DNA from: Escherichia coli
GTDB lineage: Bacteria; Pseudomonadota; Gammaproteobacteria; Enterobacterales; Enterobacteriaceae
Assembly: GCF_024298765.1 (NCBI RefSeq)
Contig: NZ_CP101210.1
Strand: one strand, 5' to 3'
DNA length: 64,000 nt
Part shown: positions 53,155 through 53,284 of the stretch, piece by piece
Numbering within the stretch: the first letter of the stretch is position 1
Layout: the number at the start of each line of letters is the position of its first letter
Notes under the pieces: generated by a model
Told to the model about the DNA's origin: nothing
Databases searched by the model: none
The model's input: the letters and a program-made list of their open reading frames with translations, nothing else
Translations under genes and position numbers: made by a program

Positions 53155-53184
53155 TTGGCAACGGATGGGTAAAACCGTTATAAC
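53155..53184 (+). promoter_or_regulatory. Sigma70-type promoter TTGGCA-N18-TATAAC for the downstream small RNA
   Basis: Read directly; places the transcription start near 53191. Confidence 0.5.
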
Positions 53185-53190
53185 ACTGTC

Positions 53191-53284
53191 ACCGGTCACC
53201 AGGACCCCAGGCCGGATTTAAGACGAGGATGCACTGCTGTGTGTACTGTAGAGTCTGGCGGATGTCGACAGGCTCTATTTTTTT
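53191..53284 (+). ncRNA. mcaS: McaS (IsrA)-like small RNA with GGA motifs and rho-independent terminator
   Basis: ~95-nt unit with several (A/C)GGA motifs and terminator hairpin + U7; sequence matches my recollection of McaS. Confidence 0.6.

Follow-up and report, generated by a model that had tools for sequence, protein, structure and literature searches.

The small RNA gene mcaS in a natural Escherichia coli variant beside an AraC/HlyD/MFS gene block

Introduction

In Escherichia coli K-12, the small RNA McaS activates flhDC and represses csgD (PMC3634460), and the csgD leader is cleaved by RNase E under its direction (PMC6061853). Transcription of mcaS in K-12 is CRP-dependent, with activation by cAMP-CRP, as reported in PMC3634460 with reference to Thomason 2012. 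McaS also carries binding sites for CsrA. PMC10729762 names the 5'-most GGA, in the loop of hairpin 1, and a GGA overlapping the csgD-pairing region; according to the same paper, one published flhD-pairing site overlaps the hairpin-1 loop, as does the main CsrA site.

Further data come from the EPEC strain E2348/69 (PMC8550237 supplements). Its mcaS (E2348CN_ncR16) shows a base mean of ~3983 and drops by log2 -7.3 in a delta-hfq mutant under activating conditions (padj 3e-82) and by log2 -2.6 under non-activating conditions. In Hfq RIL-seq of the same strain, McaS forms chimeras with the csgD 5'UTR (n=164, p 1e-153) and with flhD (n=37, p 2e-18). The most numerous McaS chimeras are those with espC (357 and 197), and other partners include the sbmA 5'UTR, the lrhA upstream region, yncL and glnK (PMC8550237 supplements). 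The dgcM (ydaM) gene of E2348/69, which encodes a diguanylate cyclase driving csgD transcription, is annotated as frameshifted (NC_011601, 1573197-1574341); this strain is the source of the McaS-csgD RIL-seq data.

Here, we describe the mcaS locus in a window of 64,000 nucleotides, the whole stretch of E. coli DNA that was analyzed (contig NZ_CP101210.1, assembly GCF_024298765.1). A first-pass annotation of this DNA had proposed McaS/IsrA for a small transcription unit at 53155-53284 and had placed it at an island boundary, between an efflux gene block and an abg deletion.

Results and discussion

A full-length McaS match between smrA and ogt

A whole-window Rfam search (cmscan) identified 53191-53286 on the plus strand as McaS/IsrA (RF00115), with 112.8 bits against a gathering score of 42 and an E value of 3.5e-20, and the match covers model positions 1-96 of 96. 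In the alignment with the annotated mcaS of K-12 MG1655 (b4426, 1405658-1405751, minus strand, 94 nt), 85/96 bases (88.5%) and the promoter hexamers are shared. The ends of the K-12 gene map to positions 53191 (5') and 53284 (3') of the window, the latter being the end coordinate given by the first-pass annotation, whose identification of McaS is borne out by both comparisons. The elements of the gene are as follows.

53131..53146, plus strand: candidate CRP-like box CGTGA-N6-TCACT, centered at about -52.5 from the start site (sequence reading)
53155..53184, plus strand: mcaS promoter, -35 TTGGCA at 53155-53160, 18-nt spacer at 53161-53178, -10 TATAAC at 53179-53184 (sequence reading, K-12 comparison)
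53191..53286, plus strand: McaS (IsrA) sRNA, island-linked haplotype (RF00115 match, fold, K-12 and E2348/69 alignment)
53248..53286, plus strand: mcaS intrinsic terminator, hairpin at 53248-53278 followed by UUUUUUU (-14.8 kcal/mol fold)

The predicted fold consists of hairpin 1 (nt 2-25, with AGGA in its loop), a central hairpin at about nt 33-57 and the terminator at nt 58-88 followed by the U tract. Four GGA motifs start at nt 12, 24, 37 and 70, at the same positions as in K-12 and all E. coli alleles. Of the two CsrA sites reported for McaS, the 5'-most (loop of hairpin 1) and the second (overlap with the csgD-pairing region) are both kept as GGA, as putative sites of this allele. The proposed transcription unit of about 95 nt with multiple GGA motifs and a strong terminator is hence found at 53191-53286, with four GGA and a hairpin of -14.8 kcal/mol followed by U7.

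Orthologues were searched in one genome per species with the conserved mcaS core as query. Nine further genomes were found (E. albertii, E. whittamii, two Escherichia, a divergent E. coli, two Citrobacter, Pseudescherichia vulneris and one Enterobacteriaceae), and 9/9 gave full-length Rfam McaS matches. The gene order in the window is smrA-(three-gene block)-mcaS-(abg stubs)-ogt, and the order smrA-mcaS-ogt recurs in 9/9 of the other species-level genomes, from Escherichia through Citrobacter and Pseudescherichia.

Taken together, we are highly confident that 53191-53286 is orthologous to mcaS (isrA, b4426), a small RNA gene of E. coli, and that it would work by the published McaS mechanism, judging from homology and from the literature on K-12 and on a strain whose McaS is identical. 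It is an already known sRNA gene in a common natural variant, and the identification is correct but ordinary. By this mechanism, a weak sigma-70 promoter, helped by cAMP-CRP, would produce a 94-96-nt Hfq-dependent RNA that ends at the intrinsic terminator. Pairing of the csgD leader with the invariant central and 3' portions of McaS would lead to cleavage of the leader and to curli repression, and contacts of the McaS 5' region with the flhD leader would activate motility. CsrA would be bound and thereby titrated by GGA motifs, chiefly those in the loop of hairpin 1 and at nt 37-39, so that pgaA is de-repressed. The copy in the window is the haplotype linked to the retained AraC/HlyD/MFS block; it differs from K-12 mainly in hairpin 1, with every known functional motif kept.

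The mcaS feature is missing from the PGAP-annotated E. coli records (four RefSeq records, including HS and E2348/69) and present only in the curated K-12 record. Five more Rfam sRNA matches lie in the window, all of full length and well over their gathering scores.

12169-12320, plus strand: sok antitoxin RNA (Rfam)
12880-12943, plus strand: RydC (Rfam)
28876-28999, minus strand: STnc490 (Rfam)
40210-40330, minus strand: MicC (Rfam)
45141-45258, minus strand: FnrS (Rfam)

MicC and FnrS are only ~5 kb apart, so there is no Rac-type prophage beside ttcA here, and the same holds for HS.

Promoter, start site and terminator

The A at 53191, which opens ACCGG and lies 7 nt past the -10 element, corresponds to the annotated 5' end of K-12 mcaS. 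The -35, the -10, the CRP-like box and the +1 context are base-for-base the same in the window, K-12, HS, SMS-3-5, CUVET16 and E2348/69, and the two hexamers are kept in all Escherichia species sampled; the spacer differs from K-12 at four positions. The sigma70 promoter TTGGCA-N18-TATAAC described in the first-pass annotation was recovered with all its elements in place, and judged by these alignments it is the native mcaS promoter. The same annotation had expected a regulatory context different from that of K-12. This applies only beyond about -106; the start site, both hexamers and the CRP-like box match K-12 exactly.

Since its -10 lacks the usually conserved final T and its spacer measures 18 nt, the promoter is predicted to be intrinsically weak. 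The CRP-like box is near-identical in E. albertii, E. whittamii and Citrobacter, and the CRP dependence of mcaS may act through this candidate at 53131-53146, for which the spacing of about -52.5 is atypical. The terminator hairpin at 53248-53278 comprises 10+2 pairs (-14.8 kcal/mol) and is followed by seven U. Its helix (helix 3) is 100% paired in 12 orthologues and invariant except for one U-A/U-G position.

Generic consensus scans listed neither the mcaS promoter nor its terminator. The scan demands a T at position 6 of the -10, and the terminator stem has bulges, so this silence reflects the rules of the scans and is not counter-evidence. The elements are identical to those of the experimentally characterized K-12 gene.

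Flanking genes, abg deletion and IS element

The genomic context was compared with E. coli HS as reference, which has a K-12-type layout. The region 48419-53084 of the window stands where HS has 111 bp between smrA and mcaS, and 5040 bp of abgR-abgA-abgB-abgT present in HS are missing here, with the deletion junction at ~53505. The bracketing of mcaS by an efflux-type block and an abg deletion is therefore seen on both sides. The flanking features are listed below.

48603-50117, minus strand: MFS (DHA2-type) gene (Pfam MFS_1; annotated in relatives)
50114-51145, minus strand: HlyD-family membrane-fusion gene (Pfam HlyD families; annotated in relatives)
51239..53120, plus strand: AraC-family regulator gene, split by an IS (Pfam; breakpoints)
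51510..52566, minus strand: IS903-group insertion sequence, 1057 bp (junctions, DDE transposase)
53294..53505, minus strand: abgR 3' stub, a pseudogene remnant convergent with mcaS (HS alignment, PGAP)
53505..53653, plus strand: abgT 3' stub, directly 5' of ogt at 53664-54179 (HS comparison)

The MFS and HlyD genes are absent from K-12-type strains. The AraC gene, which is intact (816 nt) in ATCC 11775, E2348/69, CUVET16 and APEC E12049, is split here ~260 bp from its start by the IS903-group element, and the ORF at 52602-53120 encodes only the HTH half of the AraC protein. The element is flanked by a 9-bp target duplication (AAGCGGAAA) and carries its DDE transposase on the minus strand; its ends are 91-95% identical to annotated IS903B-family copies, and the IS/AraC junction was found in none of 5426 complete E. 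coli genomes. Neither the abg deletion nor the IS insertion touches mcaS or its promoter. At a distance of at least 1.1 kb from the promoter, the IS should leave it unaffected.

The abgR stub is ~78% identical to HS abgR, with indels, and appears as a partial LysR pseudogene in the PGAP annotation of ATCC 11775, E2348/69 and APEC E12049. The PGAP call begins a few nucleotides past the mcaS terminator. Next to the abg junction, at 53497-53563, the window and APEC-type sequences differ from ATCC 11775/E2348/69 by a substitution cluster and a 12-nt indel, which points to rapid evolution of this pseudogene scar or to a patch acquired by recombination.

The nearest complete genomes are the O78:H4 strain APEC E12049 and its relatives, with 100% identity over 9.7 kb downstream and over the block. 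An assignment of the window strain to phylogroup B2 was dropped in view of these O78:H4 APEC matches at 100%, with ATCC 11775 reaching only ~98.5% in the flanks. The MFS gene is an uninterrupted ORF of 504 codons, 100% identical in APEC E12049, and is labeled 'frameshifted' by PGAP in ATCC 11775, E2348/69, CUVET16 and E12049. Either this label is a wrong annotation or the frame of the ORF is unlike that of the reference family. The idea that the MFS gene might be less or more intact in the window than in related genomes was considered and rejected, as the block is 100% identical to that of APEC E12049 and the label is an annotation call.

The block as a probably ancestral element

Of the first-pass description as an island boundary, the gene block stands and its acquisition does not. 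K-12-type E. coli still has the final 12 AraC codons, in frame and closed by the stop codon. E. whittamii and the divergent E. coli have kept ~100 nt from the 3' end of the gene, and E. albertii retains a fragment of the MFS 3' end. An insertion or acquired island is contradicted by these AraC and MFS remnants in K-12-type strains and outgroups, which point to an ancestral block that was lost in K-12-type strains.

Stubs of the abgR and abgT 3' ends occur in each Escherichia lineage of the comparison, with different deletion endpoints: abg was deleted independently at least three times in Escherichia, and mcaS was spared each time. Strain CUVET16-394 has the three-gene block together with an intact abg operon, so the events at the block and at abg are separable. 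Citrobacter and Pseudescherichia have neither abg nor the three-gene block. The simplest reading of these comparisons is that early Escherichia had both abg and the block, and that repeated, independent losses of the two followed, all of which spared mcaS.

Expression and constraint

Positions 1568802-1568897 (minus strand) of E2348/69 contain the same 96 nt as the McaS of the window. A transcript is documented for this identical sequence in E2348/69 by RNA-seq (PMC8550237 supplements), in another strain than that of the window, to which the result probably carries over.

McaS could instead be made here mainly as the 3' end of an AraC transcript, by read-through and processing or by a shared terminator, and its output would then follow the regulator of the block. 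The AraC gene lies on the same strand and ends, with its stop codon at 53118-53120, 70 nt short of the start of mcaS. Between this stop codon and mcaS there is no hairpin resembling a terminator, and the first downstream terminator is that of mcaS itself. However, K-12-type strains without the AraC gene make McaS from an identical promoter, CRP-like box and +1, and the promoter elements show zero variation within the haplotype. In the window, the AraC gene is moreover broken by the IS, with the transposase gene on the minus strand opposite to mcaS, which makes read-through even less likely. We regard this explanation as very unlikely and keep to transcription from the native promoter.

The gene might also be a decaying relic that merely looks intact, being no longer expressed or useful after the rearrangements on its flanks. 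In favor of such a history, abgR and abgT are reduced to stubs, the AraC gene is split by the IS, and mcaS was lost in a few genomes (CAVP773; 59/5426 without a match). Against this stand the full-length model match with all motifs present and a sequence that is identical in more than 1000 genomes while the adjacent stubs vary. The EPEC data contradict a relic, as the same sequence yields an abundant RNA in E2348/69 that depends on Hfq and engages targets, and we attach hardly any credence to this explanation.

Within the haplotype, the window, ATCC 11775 and E2348/69 have no variable column (0) in the 166 nt of promoter plus RNA, and the adjacent pseudogene stubs of the same three strains have accumulated 16 events in 377 nt. 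At the rate of the stubs, ~7 events would be expected in 166 nt (P(0) ~9e-4), which suggests that mcaS and its promoter are under constraint. The gene also persisted while abg was deleted independently at least three times and the upstream block was lost independently on several occasions.

Allele distribution and sequence of hairpin 1

The allele occurs at >=99% identity over the full 96 nt in 1036/5426 complete E. coli genomes. K-12-type mcaS is present in ~4300/5426, including an A18C variant, and in 59/5426 the 96-nt RNA has no match. BLAST identity bands had hinted at a 'third' class of E. coli alleles, which proved to be the K-12 type with the single A18C change. In CAVP773 (NZ_CM176349.1, ~5866-6101), two IS1 copies enclose what remains of the locus, the mcaS promoter region without the sRNA. 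A specific promoter-spacer variant and the retained AraC/HlyD/MFS block accompany the hairpin-1 haplotype.

The allele differs from K-12 mcaS at 11 positions (nt 6-10, 15, 16, 18, 20, 36 and 82). Nine of them fall within the 15 nt from nt 6 to 20, in hairpin 1, and equally tight clustering arose in only 3/200000 random placements. The remaining nt 21-96 are the same as in K-12 except for two bases, and nt 37-81 are fully identical. Of the two outer changes, C36A removes one pair of Rfam helix 2, with an alternative helix forming in the fold, and at nt 82 a terminator pair that is U-A in K-12 has become U-G. Hairpin 1 itself has the same fold as in K-12: a G-U stem pair of K-12 is C-G here, both the stem and the GGA of the loop are kept, and the loop reads ACCAGGACCCCA in this allele vs CAGAGGAGACAA in K-12.

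A similar pattern is seen across species. The 3' 60 nt (nt 37-96) are identical in 12 orthologues, which is partly an effect of ascertainment, that core being the search query, and from Escherichia to Pseudescherichia the hairpin-1 loop is lineage-specific, only the stem and the loop AGGA being constant. A covariation analysis of the Rfam structure in the 12 orthologues gave observed values equal to the shuffled ones, helices 2 and 3 barely varying.

With respect to the known targets, the csgD-pairing region (nt 37-81) is the same as in K-12, the exact paired nucleotides resting on secondary sources. The flhD-pairing region in hairpin 1 differs from K-12 at 9/15 positions, and flhD chimeras are still present in E2348/69. 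Given this divergence of hairpin 1, full functional equivalence to K-12 McaS is inferred.

The changes in hairpin 1 could alternatively have retuned the RNA, giving it a partner balance unlike that in K-12 (in flhD pairing, CsrA affinity or new targets such as espC), with csgD still being repressed via the invariant part. The clustering of 9/11 differences in nt 6-20, reached by 3/200000 permutations, fits this idea, as does the position of hairpin 1, which overlaps a published flhD site and the main CsrA site (PMC10729762). Around the fixed AGGA, the loop is different in every lineage, Escherichia through Pseudescherichia, and the commonest McaS chimeras in EPEC are with espC, an accessory gene. 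For nt 1-32 paired with the flhD leader, the predicted energy is also -30.5 to -33.1 kcal/mol vs -23.0 for K-12; however, such energies are matched by 23-46/1000 shuffled hairpins, the method is blind to the known K-12 pairing (284/1000 shuffles as good), and the cofold ddG is small (-6.1 vs -2.9). Also against retuning, chimeras with both flhD and csgD are present with the identical RNA, indicating that the canonical partners are kept. The preserved stem and loop GGA fit neutral drift of unconstrained loop positions, and the apparent compensating change in the flhD leader is found in 92 genomes vs 1036 with the allele.

This last point concerns a proposed co-variation of McaS with flhD, in which an AA-to-UG change in the E2348/69 leader completes a 7-bp helix with nt 3-9. 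It was rejected on the genome counts (92 vs 1036), on shuffles that do as well in 2-5% of cases and on the failure to find the K-12 pairing. All in all, a retuned hairpin 1 seems unlikely to us. Hairpin 1 might further be viewed as a fast-evolving module with two old E. coli haplotypes, of which the island-linked one could shift the sharing of McaS among CsrA, flhD and accessory targets such as espC, a proposal that we consider quite improbable.

Relevance and comparison with known systems

As a gene call, the locus matters little, mcaS being a textbook sRNA whose allele was already profiled in EPEC. Its value is mostly corrective: the block is ancestral, abg was lost repeatedly while sparing mcaS, and RefSeq/PGAP records come without an mcaS feature. 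Strains with the island-linked haplotype include ATCC 11775, EPEC E2348/69 and O78:H4 APEC. If the hairpin-1 haplotypes differ functionally, K-12-based models of the curli/flagella/PGA switch would not be transferable unchanged to such strains, and if hairpin 1 is indeed retuned, about one fifth of E. coli strains, many extraintestinal pathogens included, would have a differently tuned motility/biofilm switch.

The McaS of the window resembles that of K-12 in its location next to smrA, the strand relation, the three-hairpin layout, the positions of the four GGA motifs and the terminator. It differs by 11 substitutions, nine of them in hairpin 1, and by four spacer positions. The K-12 locus has a short smrA spacer beyond about -106, where the AraC-family gene lies here, and an intact convergent abgR downstream in place of the 0.2-kb stub.

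The closest match is E2348/69, with the identical 96 nt and the same layout of three-gene block, abgR and abgT stubs and ogt. Its AraC gene is intact, without an IS, its stubs differ at 14 positions and by indels, and its partner espC is an EPEC accessory gene. With CsrB/CsrC-type RNAs, McaS shares CsrA-binding GGA motifs in hairpin loops and the reported titration of CsrA. In contrast to CsrB with its ~22 GGA motifs, McaS has four, depends on Hfq, acts by base-pairing and stands outside that family.
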